Source: an uncultured Candidatus Saccharibacteria bacterium (GTDB lineage Bacteria; Patescibacteriota; Andersenbacteria; UBA10190). From it: a stretch of 64,000 bases of DNA. Each line of letters begins with the position of its first letter. Position 1 is the stretch's first letter. A model generated the notes under the pieces. The model searched no databases, was not told where the DNA came from, and saw only the letters and a list, made by a program, of their open reading frames with translations. Positions 2,156 through 13,882 of this stretch are shown piece by piece. Location of the stretch: contig CAZSUC010000001.1 of assembly GCA_964610055.1 (NCBI GenBank), forward strand, positions 6,021 to 70,020, given 5' to 3'. The translations under genes and the position numbers were made by a program.

Positions 2156-4984
2156 TTATCCCAGCATCTTCTTTAAATATTGCCCGGTATAACTTTGTTT
2201 AACCTGTGCCACTTCTCGCGGTGTACCTACCGCCACCACCGTCCCGCCATGATCACCGCCATCCGGCCCCATATCAATAATATGATCGGCCGACTTAATG
2301 ACATCTAAATTATGTTCAATCACTAACACTGAATTACCCTTATCAACCAACCGCTGTAACACCGCCAACAATCGCCGCACATCATCAAAATGCAAACCAG
2401 TCGTTGGCTCGTCTAAAATATACAAAGTTTTACCTGTCGCCCGTCGCGATAATTCAGTCGCTAATTTAATCCGCTGCGCTTCTCCACCCGACAAGGTTGT
2501 CGCTGGCTGACCCAAGTGAATATATCCTAGCCCCACATCGTTCAAAGTTTGCATTTTATCTCTAATTGTCGGCACTGGTTTGAAAAATTCCAACGCCTGT
2601 TCCACCGTCATATCCAATACATCTGCAATCGTCTTCCCTTTATATTCCACCTCCAACGCCTCCGCGTTATACCGCTTCCCATGACACTCATCACACTCAA
2701 CATAAACATCCGGCAAGAAATGCATCTCAATCTTTAGCACTCCATCGCCCTGACACGTCTCACATCGTCCACCCTTCACATTAAATGAGAACCGCCCCGC
2801 CTGATACCCCCGCACTCGCGCTTCTTCGGTTGCGGCAAACAAATCTCTAATAGACGTAAACACACCGGTGTACGTGGCTGGATTACTTCTCGGCGTTCGA
2901 CCAATCGGAGACTGATCAATCGTAATTACCTTATCTAAATTACTTAATCCAGTAATCTTTTCGTATCTTCCCGGTTGCGTGCGAGCGCGATGAAATTCTC
3001 GCGCCAACACTTTCGCCAAAATATCATTGATCAAAGTTGATTTTCCCGACCCCGACACCCCTGTCACACACGTAAATACACCCAATGGAATATCGACTGT
3101 TACGTTTTTCAAATTATGCTCGCTCGCATTTTTTATACTCAACACCTTCCCCGAACCGTGGCGATATTCTTTCGGCGCTTCAATTTCTAATTTACCAGCT
3201 AAATATTTTCCGGTTAAAGTCGCGCTGCGCTCTAACTGCTTCGGTGTTCCTTGAAAAACCACCACGCCGCCATGCTTACCCGCACCCGGACCAATATCAA
3301 TTACCTGATCCGCCATCCGAATAGTTTCCTCATCATGTTCAACTACCACCACGCTGTTACCTAGATCACGCAAGTTAATCAATGTCTTAATTAACCGACT
3401 ATTGTCACGTTGGTGTAATCCAATCGATGGTTCATCTAAAATATACAGCACACCCACCAAGCCTGATCCAATTTGAGTCGCCAACCGAATCCGTTGCGCT
3501 TCTCCGCCAGCTAAAGTTGAAGCTCGTCGATCCAAAGTCAGATAAGATAATCCCACATTCTCTAAAAACTGCAACCGATCACAAACTTCCTTTAAAATCT
3601 GTTTAGCAATCTTTTGTTTTTGCTCACCAAATTCCAGATTTTTACCCGCACGCATTGTCCGGAAAAAATCTAACAGCTTATCTACCGGCATCGTCACAAT
3701 TTCATTGATATTTTTCCCACCCACCGTCACTGCTAAAGGACCTGGTTTTAATTTCTTCCCCTGACATACCGGACATTCCTGCTCTATCATATATTGCTCA
3801 ATCTCCAGCTTCATCGCTTCACTGCTAGACTCGCGATAACGACGCATTAATTGCGGAATTACCCCTTCATACACCGTTTCCCAAGTCCCGCGCTGAGTGC
3901 GCACTGTAATCGCTATATCTGAACCATATAATATTTTTTCTAAATCCTGCGCCGGCAAATCCTGCACTGGCACTTGCATATCAATTCCTTCCGCCCGGGC
4001 AAATGTTCGTAGCAACTTATCATACCATCGACTACGTCCCGATTTACTCCAGGGCTTAATTGCCCCTTCCGCTAAACTTAATCGTCGATTTGGCACCACT
4101 AAATCTTCAGAAATTTCTTGTTTCGTTCCTAATCCCGTACATTCCGGACATGCTCCATGCGGAGAATTAAATGAAAAATCCCGTGGCTCAATCGACGGTA
4201 AACTTACCCCACATTCCGAACAAGCAAAATCTTCCGAAAAATTCCATTCCTGATCCCCCTCAGCCTCCGCCACCACCACTAAACCACCACCATGTTTCAC
4301 TGCTGTTTCCAAAGAATCAATTAACCGCGGCTTATCTGGTTTGTCTTCCAAGAAATATCGATCCACCACGATTTCAATCGTGTGTCTCTTTTGTTTATCC
4401 AATTTTATTCCTAACGCTTCATCTAATTCATACGCTGTTCCGTCCAATCTAACTCTGGCATAACCTAAATTGCGCACATCTTCCAATACTTGCCGATGCT
4501 CTCCTTTCCGATCTCGCACAATCGGCGCTAAAATCAACAACTTACTTCCGTGCGGTAACTTCACTACCTGATCCGCCATTTGCTTAACTGATTGACGCTC
4601 AATCAAACGTCCGCATTGTGGACAATGTGCTGTCCCAGTGCGTGAATACAACAAGCGTAAATAATCATATATTTCCGTTACTGTTCCAACCGTCGAACGC
4701 GGATTCCTGGAAGACGTTTTTTGATCAATTGAAATAGCAGGGGAGAGACCATCAATCTGATCAACATCAGGTTTATCCATCAAGCCTAAAAATTGCCGCG
4801 CGTAAGCCGACAACGATTCCACATATCTACGCTGGCCTTCCGCATACAACGTATCAAACGCCAAAGAGGACTTCCCCGAGCCAGACAATCCGGTTAAAAC
4901 CACCAGCTTATTCCGTGGAATTTTCACCGTAATATTTCGCAGATTATGCACCCGCGCTCCTTTGATTACAATTTCATCGGCCAT
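2156..4984 (-). CDS. uvrA: Excinuclease ABC subunit A
   Basis: 942 aa with two ABC ATPase modules ([14 protein letters not shown]..., [13 protein letters not shown]...) and zinc-finger Cys clusters. Confidence 0.95.
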
Positions 4985-9477: not shown

Positions 9478-10476
9478 ATGCACAACATCATTTCTCAATT
9501 ACCCGATCAAATTCTTCATTCTTTAGAAGTCAACGCCGCAGTTACGGCTGACTCTCAAGCCGACAGTCTCATCCTGGCCGGCCTCGGCGGCAGCTGGCAA
9601 CCAGGTGAACTGCTTAATCTCTTAGACCTCCCCACCGTTCCCCTATACATTCACCGCAATTACGGACTACCCCACATTTTTTCTCAAAAACCACTGCTCA
9701 TCGCGAGCTCATACTCCGGTAATACCGAAGAAACAATCTCCGCTTATGAAGCGGCTCACACCGCCGGTTACCCCATCTTAGTTAATTCCGCCGGTGGTAC
9801 TTTAGCCGAATGGGCTGCGCGTGATAATTTCCCCTTTGCTAAAATCGACTACCCCGGCATGCAGCCACGCCACACCACCTTAGCCAGCTTCACTGGTCTG
9901 TATACCGCCTTGCGCAACGCTGGTTTAGTTAAAGATATTACTAACGATTTAGTTACTGCCGCCGCTACCCTGCGCACAGTTTTAGCCGACATCGAAACTC
10001 CAGCCCAAGCTGTAGCCGACACTCTCGTCGGTAAAATCCCGCTATACATCGCTTCTGATGAAATGGCCTATGCCGCTTGGAATTTCAAAATCCAAACTAA
10101 CGAAAATACTAAAGCGCCCGCATTTTGGAATAAGCTGCCGGAAGCCAATCACAACGAACTGGTCAGTTTCAGTTCCTTGAAAACAATTTTCTCTGATCCA
10201 ACTCACGCCCCGCAATTTCACGCTGTCTTCCTGCACAGCAGTCTCGATTACCCCCGCACTCAAACTCGCCTTAAGATTACTCGTGACCTGTACGAACAAT
10301 GGGGCATTACAACAACTGACCTGGTTTTGGCTGGTACTTCTCGCCTTGATCAAATCTTTTATGCCATCGCCTTTGGTCTCACCACCACCTTAGCTTTAGC
10401 CGAAAAATACGGCATCGACCCTATCCCCGTCGCTGGAGTTGAAGACTTTAAGTCCCGCCTTAAAAAAGCCTCTTAA
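9478..10476 (+). CDS. Bifunctional phosphoglucose/phosphomannose isomerase (SIS domain)
   Basis: GLGGSW...SSYSGNTEET... SIS motifs, PGI/PMI type. Confidence 0.7.
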   Translation: MHNIISQLPDQILHSLEVNAAVTADSQADSLILAGLGGSWQPGELLNLLDLPTVPLYIHRNYGLPHIFSQKPLLIASSYSGNTEETISAYEAAHTAGYPILVNSAGGTLAEWAARDNFPFAKIDYPGMQPRHTTLASFTGLYTALRNAGLVKDITNDLVTAAATLRTVLADIETPAQAVADTLVGKIPLYIASDEMAYAAWNFKIQTNENTKAPAFWNKLPEANHNELVSFSSLKTIFSDPTHAPQFHAVFLHSSLDYPRTQTRLKITRDLYEQWGITTTDLVLAGTSRLDQIFYAIAFGLTTTLALAEKYGIDPIPVAGVEDFKSRLKKAS

Positions 10477-10544
10477 TATGGCCTATTAATCACGCAGAAT
10501 TGGTAAACGTACTGCAATATTAAACATTATACTAAATACTAAAT

Positions 10545-11240
10545 ATGAGGCCTGGTCCAAAACCAAAGGGCTGCGTATCTATTCAATGGTCATCAAAATT
10601 CGCTTATGCAATTGGTCTTCTTGTAGCAGATGGCTGCTTACTCAATGATGAACGACACATTGATTTTACATCCAAAGATTTAGGACAGATACAAACATTT
10701 AAAAAATGCTTGGGACTCAAAGTAAAAATCGGTACAAAAATATCAGGAACAGGCAAAAAATCTTACCGCATACAATTTGGGGACGTACTATTTTACAAGT
10801 TTCTTATACAAATCGGACTATCTACAGCAAAATCAAAAACAATATCGGGTGTTTCTGTGCCCAACCAATATTTCCCTGACTTTCTTCGAGGCTATTTTGA
10901 CGGAGATGGAACTAGTTATTCTTTCTATGATTCTATATTTCCAAAAAGTTATAGATTCTACATTGGATTTACGACTGCCAGCCCTAAGTTTGTCCATTGG
11001 TTAAGAAAGAAAATCAAAGATCTAGTACACGTAAAAGGACATATTTTCAATTATCCCAACAATAACTATTTCCAACTTAAATACTCAAAGCGTGAAGCCG
11101 TGGCAATTTGTCAATACATGTACAAGAAAAACAGTATCTACTTTTTAAAAAGAAAATATTTGAAAATTCAAAATTCTATACGCATAATCAATCAATGCCG
11201 AGGTGGTGAAATTGGTAAACACGCTACGTTCAGGTCGTAG
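10545..11240 (+). CDS. Single-chain double-motif LAGLIDADG homing endonuclease
   Basis: Two LAGLIDADG-type motifs, FAYAIGLLVADGCL and FLRGYFDGDGTS, about 95 aa apart. The region is AT-rich with Lys-rich codon usage unlike its neighbours. The last 14 codons overlap tRNA-Leu. Confidence 0.75.
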   Translation: MRPGPKPKGCVSIQWSSKFAYAIGLLVADGCLLNDERHIDFTSKDLGQIQTFKKCLGLKVKIGTKISGTGKKSYRIQFGDVLFYKFLIQIGLSTAKSKTISGVSVPNQYFPDFLRGYFDGDGTSYSFYDSIFPKSYRFYIGFTTASPKFVHWLRKKIKDLVHVKGHIFNYPNNNYFQLKYSKREAVAICQYMYKKNSIYFLKRKYLKIQNSIRIINQCRGGEIGKHATFRS

Positions 11241-11280
11241 TGCTCGCAAGGGCTTGCGGGTTCAAGTCCCGCTCTCGGCA
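11197..11280 (+). tRNA. tRNA-Leu(CAG), type II with a long variable arm; no CCA encoded
   Basis: Manual cloverleaf: acceptor GCCGAGG/TCTCGGC (7 bp, 1 G-U), D stem GTG/CAC with an 11-nt loop, anticodon stem CTACG/CGTAG with loop TTCAGGT (anticodon CAG), 15-nt variable arm with a 4-bp stem, T arm GCGGG-TTCAAGT-CCCGC, discriminator A. Confidence 0.85.
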
Positions 11281-11525
11281 CAAGAATTACTTATTTTTTA
11301 TTTACAGTTCCCTATTTCTCCATAGTTCCTAATCTAAAAATTAGATTTTACTCGAAACACTATACTAATATTAAATTTAATAATTCTTACCGTCTTCTGA
11401 ACCAGTATCACTGTCTATACCTGTCTAGAAGTCAGAGATATAAGCAATAGAAGATTTGTTATTTGCTCTAATAAAAGATAAAGACTAATTCTTGCTAATT
11501 TCCAGTACCTTTATAAAACACCGTT

Positions 11526-11929: not shown

Positions 11930-13882
11930 ATGAATCAATCTAATTCCGGTACGGCTGTTAAGCGTACTATTCCAACTCCTCCGCCGATCCCTCAGCGGCC
12001 AGCGGCTATTCGTCGTCCTCAATCTACAGTCACCGCGGCTCCAAAAGCTCGTCCCGACTCCAAACGACGCCGTCCTTCTGACAACAATCGTCGTCCTAAT
12101 AATCGCCGTCCTGGCGGCCGCGCTCCGCGTGGCCGTGGAGGTCGCAATGTTGGTGTCCATTTTGGCCCATCCCGCAGCGCCTCTACTCAAGATATTAAAC
12201 AACCACCTCGCAATCCTGATGCCATGCATCTTTTGCCTTTAGGTGGCTTAGAAGAAATTGGCCGTAATTCCGCTGCCGTTGAATACAAAGACAGCATCGT
12301 TATTATCGACATCGGTCTCATGTTCCCGACCGAGAATATGCACGGCATTGACTATATCATCCCTGATATTTCTCCTCTGTATGGCAAAGAGAAAAAAATC
12401 AAAGGTGTGATTATCACCCATGCTCACTACGATCACTTTGGCGGCGCTCCTCATATCTTGCCTAAACTTGGCAATCCTCCCGTTTACGGTTCTGAATTCA
12501 CTACACGTATTTTTCAAAAACGCCACGCTGAATTCCCGGATTATGCTAAACCGCAAATTCACGTTGTCCAACCTAACCAAAGTTTCCGCTTAGGTGATTT
12601 TGAGATTGAAACTTTTCACGTTAATCATTCCGTTCCTAACGCTTTTGGTGTCGTTGTTCGTTCCCCGGCCGGATCTATCGCCTTCACTGGTGATTTCAAA
12701 TTCGACCACAACCCCGTTAACGACAAACCCGCCGACGAAGAACGTATTAAAGAATTAGCTGCTAAAGGCATTAGCGTCCTTTACACTGATTCGACCGGCG
12801 CCGAAAAAGAAGGTCACTCAATTTCCGAGTCAATTATCGAAACTAATCTCGATAAAATTTTCGACGCTCATCCTAACCAGCGCATCATCACCGCTACCTT
12901 CTCCACCATGATCGATCGTCTGCAACAAATGATTTCGGTCGCCGAAAAACATGGTCGGAAAGTTGCGATTGACGGCTACTCCATGAAAACCAACGTCGAA
13001 ATCGCACGTGAAATCGGTTTCATGAAAGTTAAGAAAGAAACTATTATCACCCCTGAAGAAAGCAACAAGCTTCCGCCAGGCAAAGTCCTTATTCTTTGCA
13101 CCGGTGCTCAAGGTGAAGACAACGCTGTTCTTATGCGTTTGGTTAACAAAGAACATCGTAGTCTTGAGTTACAAGCCGGCGACGTTGTTATCTTCTCCTC
13201 GTCAGTCATCCCTGGCAACGAAGCTTCCGTGCAAATTGTTAAAGATCAGATCTACAAACAAGGCGCCGAAGTGTATCACTACAAGATGATGGATATTCAT
13301 TCCGGTGGTCATGGTCATCGCGACGACTTGGTTCACATGATGGAACTGATGCAACCTCAGTACGTTATTCCTGCTCACGGCTATTTCAGTTTCCGTGCCG
13401 AACACGCTAAATTAGCGGTTGCTCACGGCATCCCTCGCGATCACATTCTTTTGCCCAGCAACGGTGAAGTCATTGAAATTACTCCACACAAAGTCCGTCT
13501 CAACGGTGAAAAATATGAAATTAGTCACGTCATGGTTGACGGTCTCGGTGTCGGTGATGTCGGTAACGTAGTTCTACGTGACCGCCAAATCCTTGCCGCT
13601 GACGGTATGGTTGTTTTAATTGCCACCGTTGACGGTCGCACCGGAGAAGTCATTGGCGAACCTGATTTAATCACGCGTGGTTTCATCTATATCAAAGAAC
13701 ATCAACAGTTGGTCAAAGATACCCGCACTAAGATTAAAGACATTATTCGCAAACAAACCGGCAAACGCGGTGAACCGAATTGGACTCACTTGAAAGCCAA
13801 CCTACGCGACGATATTGGTCAATTCCTCTTCCAGAAAACCGAACGTCGCCCCATGGTTTTGCCTGTTATCGTTGAAGTCTAA
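11930..13882 (+). CDS. rnj: Ribonuclease J (metallo-beta-lactamase / beta-CASP) with a ~98-aa Arg/Pro-rich N-terminal extension
   Basis: HAHYDHFGG motif, beta-CASP and C-terminal domain. The catalytic core starts near MHLLPLGGLEEIGRN (alternative start ~12224). Confidence 0.85.
   Translation: MNQSNSGTAVKRTIPTPPPIPQRPAAIRRPQSTVTAAPKARPDSKRRRPSDNNRRPNNRRPGGRAPRGRGGRNVGVHFGPSRSASTQDIKQPPRNPDAMHLLPLGGLEEIGRNSAAVEYKDSIVIIDIGLMFPTENMHGIDYIIPDISPLYGKEKKIKGVIITHAHYDHFGGAPHILPKLGNPPVYGSEFTTRIFQKRHAEFPDYAKPQIHVVQPNQSFRLGDFEIETFHVNHSVPNAFGVVVRSPAGSIAFTGDFKFDHNPVNDKPADEERIKELAAKGISVLYTDSTGAEKEGHSISESIIETNLDKIFDAHPNQRIITATFSTMIDRLQQMISVAEKHGRKVAIDGYSMKTNVEIAREIGFMKVKKETIITPEESNKLPPGKVLILCTGAQGEDNAVLMRLVNKEHRSLELQAGDVVIFSSSVIPGNEASVQIVKDQIYKQGAEVYHYKMMDIHSGGHGHRDDLVHMMELMQPQYVIPAHGYFSFRAEHAKLAVAHGIPRDHILLPSNGEVIEITPHKVRLNGEKYEISHVMVDGLGVGDVGNVVLRDRQILAADGMVVLIATVDGRTGEVIGEPDLITRGFIYIKEHQQLVKDTRTKIKDIIRKQTGKRGEPNWTHLKANLRDDIGQFLFQKTERRPMVLPVIVEV

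Follow-up and report, generated by a model that had tools for sequence, protein, structure and literature searches.

A LAGLIDADG endonuclease gene overlapping a tRNA-Leu(CAG) gene in a Patescibacteria genome: a probable mobile cassette that replaces its target tRNA gene

Introduction

The stretch of DNA analysed here, called the window, comprises 64,000 nucleotides of an uncultured Candidatus Saccharibacteria bacterium (GTDB lineage Bacteria; Patescibacteriota; Andersenbacteria; UBA10190; GenBank assembly GCA_964610055.1, contig CAZSUC010000001.1, positions 6,021 to 70,020 of the forward strand). Downstream of the PGI gene lies an open reading frame (ORF) for a LAGLIDADG homing endonuclease, and this ORF reads into an intact tRNA-Leu(CAG) gene. 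We propose that the ORF and the tRNA gene probably form one mobile cassette of ~0.75-0.8 kb, which sits inside the host's former tRNA-Leu(CAG) gene and has disrupted and replaced it. The components of the cassette would be a -10 box, an endonuclease of two domains whose last helix also holds a tRNA promoter, and a complete tRNA-Leu(CAG) (Table 1). LAGLIDADG homing endonucleases cut a target of ~20 bp site-specifically and leave 4-nt 3' overhangs.

Linkage between the tRNA allele and the endonuclease

Homologues of the endonuclease were sought with a profile in one genome of each GTDB species, which gave 80 loci; loci are denoted below by L numbers. Against these 80 genome loci, the flanking genes of the window showed no synteny beyond one weak SBP5 match. 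Orthologous loci were therefore reached through the upstream neighbour, PGI. The nearest PGI homologues are just 54-56% identical to that of the window, compared with 70-77% for the endonuclease relatives, and the contigs with PGI homologues retain the gene order of the window, UvrC-SecG-x-SBP5-PGI. Two sites of this kind are empty. In L084, SBP5 and PGI are followed after 10 nt by tRNA-Leu(CAG), and in L086 PGI is followed after 46 nt by tRNA-Leu(CAG), in both cases with no endonuclease. The sites of the window, L087, L088 and L089 are occupied by an endonuclease between PGI and the tRNA. The first-pass annotation, made from the letters of the window, had suggested a comparison of orthologous tRNA-Leu loci, and the comparison reveals a presence/absence polymorphism at one site. 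The polymorphism does not follow host relatedness, as is characteristic of a homing element. The PGI of L087 and L088, which carry the homing endonuclease gene (HEG), is 68-70% identical to that of the HEG-free L084 and L086, and just 52-53% identical to that of the HEG-bearing window.

The tRNA-Leu(CAG) genes at these sites fall into two alleles. The HEG-free allele (GGGGATG...CATCCCC) is common to four genomes (L083-L086), with a mutual identity of 87-94%; the resident-type allele reads CAGCG TTCAGGG CGCTG in its interior. The HEG-linked alleles (GCCGAGG...CCTCGGC) are 92-100% identical to one another, and the identity between HEG-linked and HEG-free alleles is 66-79%. The tRNA of the window is 94-98% identical to the endonuclease-linked tRNAs of L087, L088, L089 and L092, and 70-76% identical to the same-site tRNAs of the HEG-free L083-L086. 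The similarity from cassette to cassette stops exactly at the tRNA 3' end. The G+C content of the endonuclease gene is 34-43% in four genomes, in which that of PGI is 49-52%. These results show that the tRNA alleles sort with the endonuclease and not with the host. By this co-inheritance of the tRNA allele with the ORF, the sequences would assign the cassette to the free-standing, intron-less type of homing represented by T4 Seg/Mob.

Alternatively, a free-standing endonuclease gene might have landed 5' of the host's own tRNA-Leu(CAG), so that the ORF alone is foreign. In favour of this, the tRNA gene is whole and the unusual composition is confined to the ORF. The ORF core contains 33.9% G+C, less than any of the 616 other segments of this length (host 44.1 +/- 2.7%). 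For its GC skew, a value of -0.086 was obtained, compared with -0.281 for the host; these values bear out the earlier description of the region as AT-rich and atypical. Furthermore, the adjacent tRNAs of the Leu(GAG) clade are diverse, as host genes would be. However, the endonuclease-linked tRNAs that are almost identical to that of the window belong to genomes whose PGI is just 52-56% identical, and the tRNAs of HEG-free relatives at the same site are much more distant, as given above. In addition, the halves of the resident gene in L088 flank the endonuclease and the tRNA together, and a decayed tRNA 5' fragment is located between PGI and the ORF of the window (see below). We thus consider it unlikely that the tRNA is the host's own. 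The first-pass annotation had regarded the ORF as a free-standing gene abutting the tRNA gene. The gene is free-standing, but mere abutting does not describe it, since the allele identities and the split gene of L088 indicate that the tRNA travels with the ORF.

The split resident tRNA gene and its remnants

In L088, where the insertion is fresh, the resident tRNA-Leu(CAG) gene is present in two pieces. Residues 1-26 of the resident tRNA (GGGGATGTGGTGGAATTGGCAGACAC) are located at 3394-3419, 30 nt 5' of the endonuclease start, and are 96-100% identical to the HEG-free relatives. Residues 32-85 are located at 4244-4297, 58 nt 3' of the cassette tRNA. This 3' piece is 93% identical to L086, with a compensatory change in the variable arm, and just 67% identical to the neighbouring cassette tRNA; it ends 40 nt ahead of a homologue of the mini-ORF described below. 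The insert within the resident tRNA has a length of ~824 bp and consists of the leader, the endonuclease, the complete tRNA and the 58 nt. Between the two pieces, resident nt 27-31 (5' strand of the anticodon stem) are gone, and this gap of five nucleotides would fit a short overhang lost at the cut. We also considered that only the 5' half of the tRNA had been replaced. This was rejected, because the two alleles differ in acceptor stem, variable arm and T-arm alike, and because both resident halves of L088 lie outside the cassette.

A further feature was observed in L088. At ~3330-3365, 5' of the pristine resident fragment, there is a second, older pseudo-5' half (GTGTGGTGGAATTAGCAATATACAGTTCAGAAGC, then TTACAAT). 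It may be the trace of an earlier invasion at the same site.

Remnants are also observed in other loci. The closest relatives of the window protein are those of L092 and L093 (77%) and L094 (75%), and in all three loci a fragment of the resident type (GGGGATG...), ending at nt ~27-30, abuts the endonuclease. N-terminal extensions that translate such a D-arm are annotated in eight of the 120 best homologues. On the other side, 3' tRNA fragments comprising the T-arm and the acceptor strand are found downstream of the intact tRNA in L006, L018, L021, L054, L057 and L075, which represent the Leu(CAG), Leu(GAG) and Asp clades. Most Leu-clade loci have a conserved pseudo-5' half with the matching anticodon, 15-60 nt 5' of the endonuclease start. 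As a separate observation, L038 (1288-1351) contains a pseudo-tRNA-Leu (profile positions 1-64, E=2e-4), uncalled by ARAGORN, between an intact tRNA-Leu(CAG) and a tRNA-Leu(UAG), with no endonuclease nearby.

In the window, a decayed 5' fragment of the former resident gene follows PGI (Table 1). It includes an exact 11-mer, AATTGGTAAAC (10498-10508), that matches the tRNA D-loop. The fragment is similar to the remnant of L094 (shuffle p=0.0005) and to that of L092 (p=0.02), and its offset from PGI equals the tRNA offset in the HEG-free L084 (10 nt).

Fusion of the endonuclease to tRNAs across the family

A protein search gave 1482 homologues of the window endonuclease, almost all from metagenome assemblies of Patescibacteria, also called the Candidate Phyla Radiation (CPR). 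Among the 120 best homologues, 103 end with the tRNA-encoded tail ..RRGGEIGKHAxFRS, and 11 traverse the tRNA in another frame (..GGEMANTLRSGRSARKGLRVQVPPSAQ), so that 114 enter a tRNA; the other six are truncated. In 67 of the 80 loci of the survey, the ORF terminates at -56 to +53 nt relative to the first nucleotide of a tRNA on the same strand. The remaining 13 comprise three truncated ORFs with the tRNA still following, six intron-split tRNAs, one inverted tRNA (L011) and three contig ends. The protein clusters track the tRNA identity, namely Leu(CAG), Leu(GAG), Leu(UAG/UAA) and Asp(GUC), with single cases of Cys, Val and Phe. As a control, distant homologues on viral contigs (<=34% identity) were used, and these adjoin a tRNA in one of 80 loci. 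These results show that the fusion of endonuclease and tRNA is the rule for the family. Degenerate copies of the endonuclease were found in L002, L047 and L048, as expected from a homing cycle.

A phage vector was also considered. It was rejected, because the viral contigs carry only the distant homologues of the control, which are not tRNA-adjacent.

The overlap could in principle be an artefact, in which an assembly frameshift or a lost stop runs the ORF into the tRNA; the first-pass annotation had allowed for this. Only the unusual look of the locus speaks for it. The same protein is present on three independent contigs, and most of the best homologues, from many unrelated assemblies, also enter the tRNA, generally with the same tail. 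The probability of an artefact is thus practically negligible.

The endonuclease

The two LAGLIDADG motifs noted by the first-pass annotation are confirmed by the ORF call, by the Pfam match to LAGLIDADG_3 (E=1.2e-8, 35.6 bits, cut-off 22.5) and by the invariant Asp-Gly pairs. Asp29/Gly30 and Asp121/Gly122 are present without exception in an alignment of 28 homologues, whose identity to the window protein is 55-71%; the mean column identity of this alignment is 71%. Two motifs, each with a terminal catalytic acidic residue, are those of the monomeric two-domain type. The folded core corresponds to residues ~15-217. According to the AlphaFold model (pLDDT, the predicted local distance difference test, 86.9; pTM, the predicted template modelling score, 0.85), the protein has two alpha/beta LAGLIDADG domains, and the predicted fold is that of two alpha-beta-beta-alpha-beta-beta-alpha domains packed via the LAGLIDADG helices. 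The top structural match by Foldseek is the archaeal intron-encoded I-Tsp061I (PDB 2dch; E=1e-11, template modelling score 0.74), followed by I-AniI, I-SmaMI, I-OnuI, I-SceI and I-DmoI among the further matches. The top PDB match by sequence is also 2dch (E=5e-9). In sequence and predicted structure, the window protein looks like an active monomeric homing endonuclease.

The start codon is located 68 nt 3' of the PGI stop codon. The ORF thus has its own start and does not lie in frame inside a host protein. A TTATACT box precedes the start codon (Table 1), and TTATACT or TATAAT is equally placed in 13 aligned loci of the Leu(CAG) clade. The two-hexamer promoter scan did not return this box, and no plausibly spaced -35 hexamer was found 5' of TTATACT on reading the aligned Leu(CAG)-clade loci. 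Given its conserved placement, the box probably promotes transcription of an endonuclease mRNA with almost no leader.

The overlap and the putative embedded promoter

ARAGORN and Rfam agree on the complete type II tRNA-Leu(CAG), the sole Rfam match in all 64 kb. The 44-nt run of the ORF into an intact tRNA, with the last 14 codons encoded by the tRNA, is as the first-pass annotation had described it, except that the tRNA end had been set at 11280, trivially 1 nt short of the ARAGORN end. The element allele has the acceptor stem GCCGAGG/CCTCGGC and the anticodon stem CTACG/CGTAG. The stop codon TAG (11238-11240) of the endonuclease coincides with the final three nucleotides of the 3' strand of the anticodon stem.

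Residues 221-231 of the tail show pLDDT values below 50 and are predicted to be disordered. The frame of the tail is set by a 1-nt difference in D-loop length: with the shorter D-loop of L087 and L088, the ORF reads through the whole tRNA. As the frame follows the D-loop length and the tail is predicted to be disordered, the tail appears to be dictated by the tRNA and not selected as protein. Rather than a functional protein tail, the overlap would then be a side effect of selection that brought the nuclease and the rescue tRNA to zero distance.

A sigma-70-like promoter, TTGAAA-17 nt-CATAAT, lies inside the 3' coding region of the endonuclease. It matched 10 of 12 positions in the promoter scan, and its -10 hexamer ends 8 nt ahead of tRNA nt 1. 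The same DNA motif is located at equal distance in L001-L004, L006, L007, L087-L089 and L092. The Leu codon at the -35 position is TTG in 11 of 14 loci, compared with 23% TTG overall, and the Ile-Ile codons at the -10 position are ATA ATC in 11 of 14 loci; these loci come from related lineages, so that the counts overstate independence. According to the position and the codon usage, the embedded motif is the probable promoter of the cassette tRNA. With the promoter within the nuclease codons and the stop codon within the tRNA, the last helix of the nuclease would encode the promoter of the rescue tRNA, and the tRNA encodes the stop of the nuclease.

Two side observations concern this region. 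In L011 (1518-1602), the sole locus in which the adjacent tRNA-Leu(CAG) is inverted (minus strand), the embedded motif is degraded (CTGAAA ... TATCAT). In L015, L022, L025, L046 and L080 (Leu(GAG) and Asp clades), a perfect TTGACA ends 7-8 nt 5' of tRNA nt 1, an odd position for a -35 hexamer.

The close coupling of the two genes raises another explanation, in which the LAGLIDADG protein is domesticated, inherited vertically and serves the adjacent tRNA as a maturase-like or regulatory, co-transcribed factor. The very consistent tie to the tRNA 5' flank, the promoter shared with the tRNA and the strong purifying selection evident in the column identity would all be expected of such a protein. 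Nevertheless, we regard domestication as highly improbable. Presence and absence at the same site are interleaved with host similarity, resident tRNA genes are disrupted and pseudogenised copies exist. Moreover, both catalytic aspartates are kept, the composition is AT-rich and foreign in four genomes, and the HEG-free relatives manage the same tRNA species without the endonuclease.

Relatives with group I introns

In L058, L064, L070, L072 and L078 (~3610-3940 each), a tRNA-Asp(GUC) is split between nt 35 and 36 by 213-235 nt. In L040 (3655-3949), a tRNA-Phe(GAA) is split between nt 33 and 34 by 222 nt. The Rfam group I intron model (RF00028) matches above the gathering score in L040, L070 and L072 (the three scores are 71.4, 53.3 and 52.8 bits). 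Joining of the exons restores the tRNA in the intron-split loci, and the intron call in L058, L064 and L078 is based on this. ARAGORN misses the intron-split tRNAs of these CPR genomes. The anticodon-loop introns are ORF-less, and the homologous endonuclease ORF is located directly upstream of the 5' exon, not within the intron.

By nature, the anticodon stem-loop is pseudo-palindromic, and LAGLIDADG enzymes use sites of this type. The placement of the introns in the relatives points to the anticodon loop as the nuclease target. Such a target agrees with the junctions of L088 at nt 26-32 and with the upstream pseudo-halves, which end at nt 37-43.

Alternatively, the ORF of the window might be a relic of a group I intron-encoded endonuclease, whose ribozyme has decayed and whose tRNA was restored by duplication. 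Members of the same family adjoin tRNAs with anticodon-loop group I introns, and the upstream pseudo-halves of the Leu clade end at the anticodon. In the window, however, no group I intron signal was detected by Rfam between 9500 and 12500 even at E<=10, nor at the gathering score over the whole window. Even the intron-bearing loci have the ORF outside the intron, and the tRNA in the cassette is no copy of the resident one but another allele. An intron relic is thus very unlikely. The first-pass annotation had rightly placed the ORF outside introns and inteins, as the lack of an Rfam intron match and its own start codon indicate; its suggestion that the gene was formerly intronic does not hold for the window locus, although relatives do adjoin intron-bearing tRNAs.

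Proposed mechanism

In the loci compared, endonuclease and tRNA are seen as one fused unit that has entered and replaced tRNA genes of the resident, and that occupies a given site patchily, together with its own allele. The preferred reading, a cassette that carries endonuclease and tRNA together, suggests the following steps. The cassette would have entered the site directly 3' of PGI and interrupted the resident gene in the anticodon-stem region. The resident halves would have been left on both sides to decay, and the cassette tRNA allele would have taken over the function. The endonuclease would cut HEG-free tRNA-Leu(CAG) genes in or beside the anticodon loop, a site suggested by the pseudo-palindrome of the stem-loop and by the group I introns placed there in the relatives. 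Repair of the break would then copy the cassette, for which the tRNA-derived flanks would serve as homology arms. The cassette allele may escape cutting by two swapped base pairs of the anticodon stem, 28:42 and 29:41, and by its different acceptor stem, variable arm and T-arm. In the intron-bearing relatives, the group I intron may provide the escape instead of allele differences.

Immunity by a distinct D-arm was considered as well, as the D-loop of HEG-linked Leu(CAG) tRNAs had at first seemed 2 nt longer than that of HEG-free ones. This candidate was rejected, because syntenic HEG-free relatives have the same long D-arm.

Several points weigh against this reading. The anticodon loop is identical in the resident and cassette alleles, so that immunity would rest on few differences in the stem and the arms. 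Immunity is the weakest step, for which these differences may matter; like cleavage and homing, it is inferred from sequence comparisons. Both resident halves are pristine in one locus only (L088), and all the data are metagenome assemblies. The endonucleases of the syntenic genomes are 66-76% identical in a star-like manner, so that no recent transfer was directly caught, and for some lineages an ancient insertion followed by repeated loss may apply. In the Leu(GAG) clade, conservation is higher in the upstream pseudo-half than in the adjacent tRNA, which the simple model explains incompletely. In the window, the 5' remnant aligns weakly to the resident-type tRNA itself (p=0.08) and is recognisable mainly via the relatives. 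No resident 3' remnant was found in the spacer of the window, which behaves like shuffled sequence against the resident-type 3' halves (p>0.2).

Two further results concern the flanks of the window. The nhmmer search of its two flanks with a profile of the resident-type tRNA gave no match, and a candidate 3' remnant at 11487-11504 was rejected as no better than shuffles. The cassette is old in the window, and the flanking remnants are largely decayed.

The nuclease and the tRNA copy are tightly linked, with an overlap and a shared putative promoter, and the resident copy is disrupted in L088. Such linkage and disruption would be expected of a cleave-and-rescue element, whose rescue copy should also resist cutting. 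We tentatively extend the proposal to the whole family, although the extension falls somewhat short of being probable: a large CPR family of LAGLIDADG endonucleases would act as a natural bacterial 'cleave and rescue' system, which destroys the resident tRNA gene and installs a fused, cut-resistant allele with recoded stems or an anticodon-loop group I intron. This would drive a repeated turnover of tRNA alleles across lineages, and the nested pseudo-half of L088 would reflect successive invasions.

Table 1. Features of the cassette and its flanks in the window
Feature	Position	Strand	Remarks
Decayed 5' fragment of the former resident tRNA-Leu(CAG)	10484-10511	+	~tRNA nt 1-27; 8-10 nt after the PGI stop (10474-10476)
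TTATACT, -10-like box	10527-10533	+	11 nt 5' of the endonuclease start codon
LAGLIDADG homing endonuclease ORF	10545-11240	+	ATG start, 231 codons; last 14 codons and stop are tRNA sequence
Motif 1, AIGLLVADG	10608-10634	+	residues 22-30
Motif 2, YFDGDG	10893-10910	+	residues 117-122
Sigma-70-like promoter, TTGAAA-17 nt-CATAAT (putative)	11160-11188	+	inside the endonuclease 3' coding region (codons ..YLKI..RII..)
ORF/tRNA overlap, 44 nt	11197-11240	+	acceptor 5' strand, D-arm and whole anticodon arm; codons 218-231 (C218 to S231) and stop
Complete type II tRNA-Leu(CAG), element allele	11197-11281	+	ARAGORN; Rfam tRNA 54.5 bits (gathering score 29)
AT-rich spacer, 244 nt	11282-11525	+	27.5% GC; between the cassette tRNA and the mini-ORF; expected place of the resident 3' fragment
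Cys-rich mini-ORF, 52 aa	11526-11684		MTHYTCTEC...CQDPDC...CDCTDGEHG...DEDYYAH

Neighbouring features

The Cys-rich mini-ORF downstream of the spacer is conserved 3' of tRNA-Leu(CAG) in L088 (4338-4496) and L093 (~1107-1283). It gave no Pfam match and no exact sequence match on record. Its product is probably a small zinc-binding protein. As the mini-ORF is equally placed in these two loci, it is a resident gene, neither cargo nor the sign of a hotspot. The first-pass annotation had seen a small integration hotspot at the tRNA 3' end. This must be revised, because the former resident tRNA was interrupted in the region of its anticodon stem. The pattern of integrases that target tRNA genes through att-type sites, with a tyrosine or serine recombinase gene and the tRNA 3' end directly repeated at the far border, is also absent: the LAGLIDADG gene is the only ORF between PGI and the tRNA, and the repeated piece of the tRNA is its 5' part, located upstream.

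Some other features were observed. The RNase J gene of the window has an Arg/Pro/Asn-rich, low-complexity N-terminal extension of ~90 residues (11930-12200; locally 54-58% GC), and the Pfam domains begin only at about residue 112. Over the entire window (1-64000), the GC skew is between -0.13 and -0.43 in every 2-kb block, with a mean of -0.28, and the endonuclease ORF is among the few exceptions. This strand skew resembles the 'nucleotide composition disparity between strands' described in a Microgenomates genome (PMC7143001). In L089, an ORF for DUF559 (Vsr-like endonuclease) lies between PGI and the cassette (1406-1735), and it is followed at ~1736-1900 by three tandem copies of a GC-rich unit of ~45 nt (..CGTCGTGTTCTCCCCCTT..GGGGGAGCTAGAGGGGGTC..).

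Significance and comparison with known systems

To our knowledge, homing endonuclease genes are thought to persist in essential genes only within self-splicing introns or inteins, and otherwise to sit harmlessly between genes. The cassette would represent a third solution, on a bacterial chromosome: to break the gene and to bring a working spare, here a complete tRNA with a putative promoter in the nuclease codons. If cleavage and immunity are true, the cassette is a natural model for engineered cleave-and-rescue drives, and it would explain some CPR tRNA alleles that disagree with the host tree. One family would then connect free-standing endonucleases with allele replacement and with group I introns in the anticodon loop, which bears on the origin of mobile introns. 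The family would also offer a set of compact nucleases with related and easily read targets, the anticodon arms of tRNAs. For annotation, such ORFs are routinely called "hypothetical" or mis-extended, and the adjoining half-tRNA remnants should be taken as real features, not noise. In the full-text literature on LAGLIDADG or homing endonucleases and tRNA genes, the coverage of which is incomplete, we found no description of this arrangement in CPR/Patescibacteria, and we provisionally regard it as undescribed.

LAGLIDADG endonucleases are known from rRNA-gene insertions of CPR bacteria (PMC11270868), and rRNA insertions are the subject of the CPR endonuclease literature covered here. These enzymes and the archaeal intron-encoded I-Tsp061I and I-DmoI belong to the same superfamily as the window protein, and the CPR enzymes come from the same host group. 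Unlike the window protein, they are encoded in introns or rRNA-gene insertions and are mostly single-domain; the word tRNA is absent from the main text of that report. A free-standing endonuclease next to a target intron is the layout of "collaborative homing" in phages (PMC3984707, PMC6083498). This layout is observed in L040, L070 and L072 according to Rfam, and in L058, L064 and L078 according to exon joining, and is absent from the window. As the window has no intron, the protection of its own tRNA would have to come from allele differences; the nuclease family and the type of target also differ from those of the phages.

Mobile ORFs (mORFs) of fungal mitochondria carry a foreign piece of the target gene, as in atp6 of Allomyces macrogynus and atp6, atp9, cox2 and nad3 of Glomus (PMC3630166). 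Like the cassette, an mORF is an intron-less endonuclease ORF, often of LAGLIDADG type, inside a gene, with a foreign copy of the displaced segment; the native segment stays nearby as an unexpressed remnant of the gene that holds the ORF, and its frame can be continuous with that of the gene. The complete set of insertion in the target gene, carried foreign copy and native remnant is observed in L088, and part of it in L006, L018, L021, L092 and L094; the window shows the decayed 5' remnant only. The cassette differs in that it resides on a CPR chromosome, targets a tRNA and carries the whole gene with its own putative promoter, not a C-terminal piece. As the whole gene is carried, both native halves are discarded. 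Moreover, the overlap of the cassette ORF is with the rescue gene, at its 5' end, whereas an mORF overlaps the 3' end of the host gene.

SegB of phage T4 is a free-standing GIY-YIG endonuclease in a tRNA gene cluster (PMC2330249). It is similar to the cassette in that it lies among tRNA genes, recognises a conserved tRNA-gene motif and drives the preferential inheritance of its gene as well as the neighbouring tRNA genes, with the loss of recipient markers in the tRNA region. However, it is a phage enzyme of the GIY-YIG type, its recognition site is the T-psi-C stem-loop and its action takes place during co-infection by phages. It neither overlaps a tRNA nor sits inside a resident tRNA gene that has been disrupted.

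Synthetic Cleave-and-Rescue (ClvR) gene-drive elements (PMC6442612) share the logic: a nuclease disrupts a needed endogenous gene, and a tightly linked recoded copy escapes cutting. ClvR is engineered from Cas9 and guide RNAs, is located away from its target and spreads in sexual populations, where it kills the non-carriers. In contrast, the cassette occupies its own target and would spread through the repair of breaks, and the resistance of its rescue allele is proposed from the allele differences. By analogy, the nearest precedents of the cassette would thus be the mORFs in logic, SegB in target and ClvR in design.

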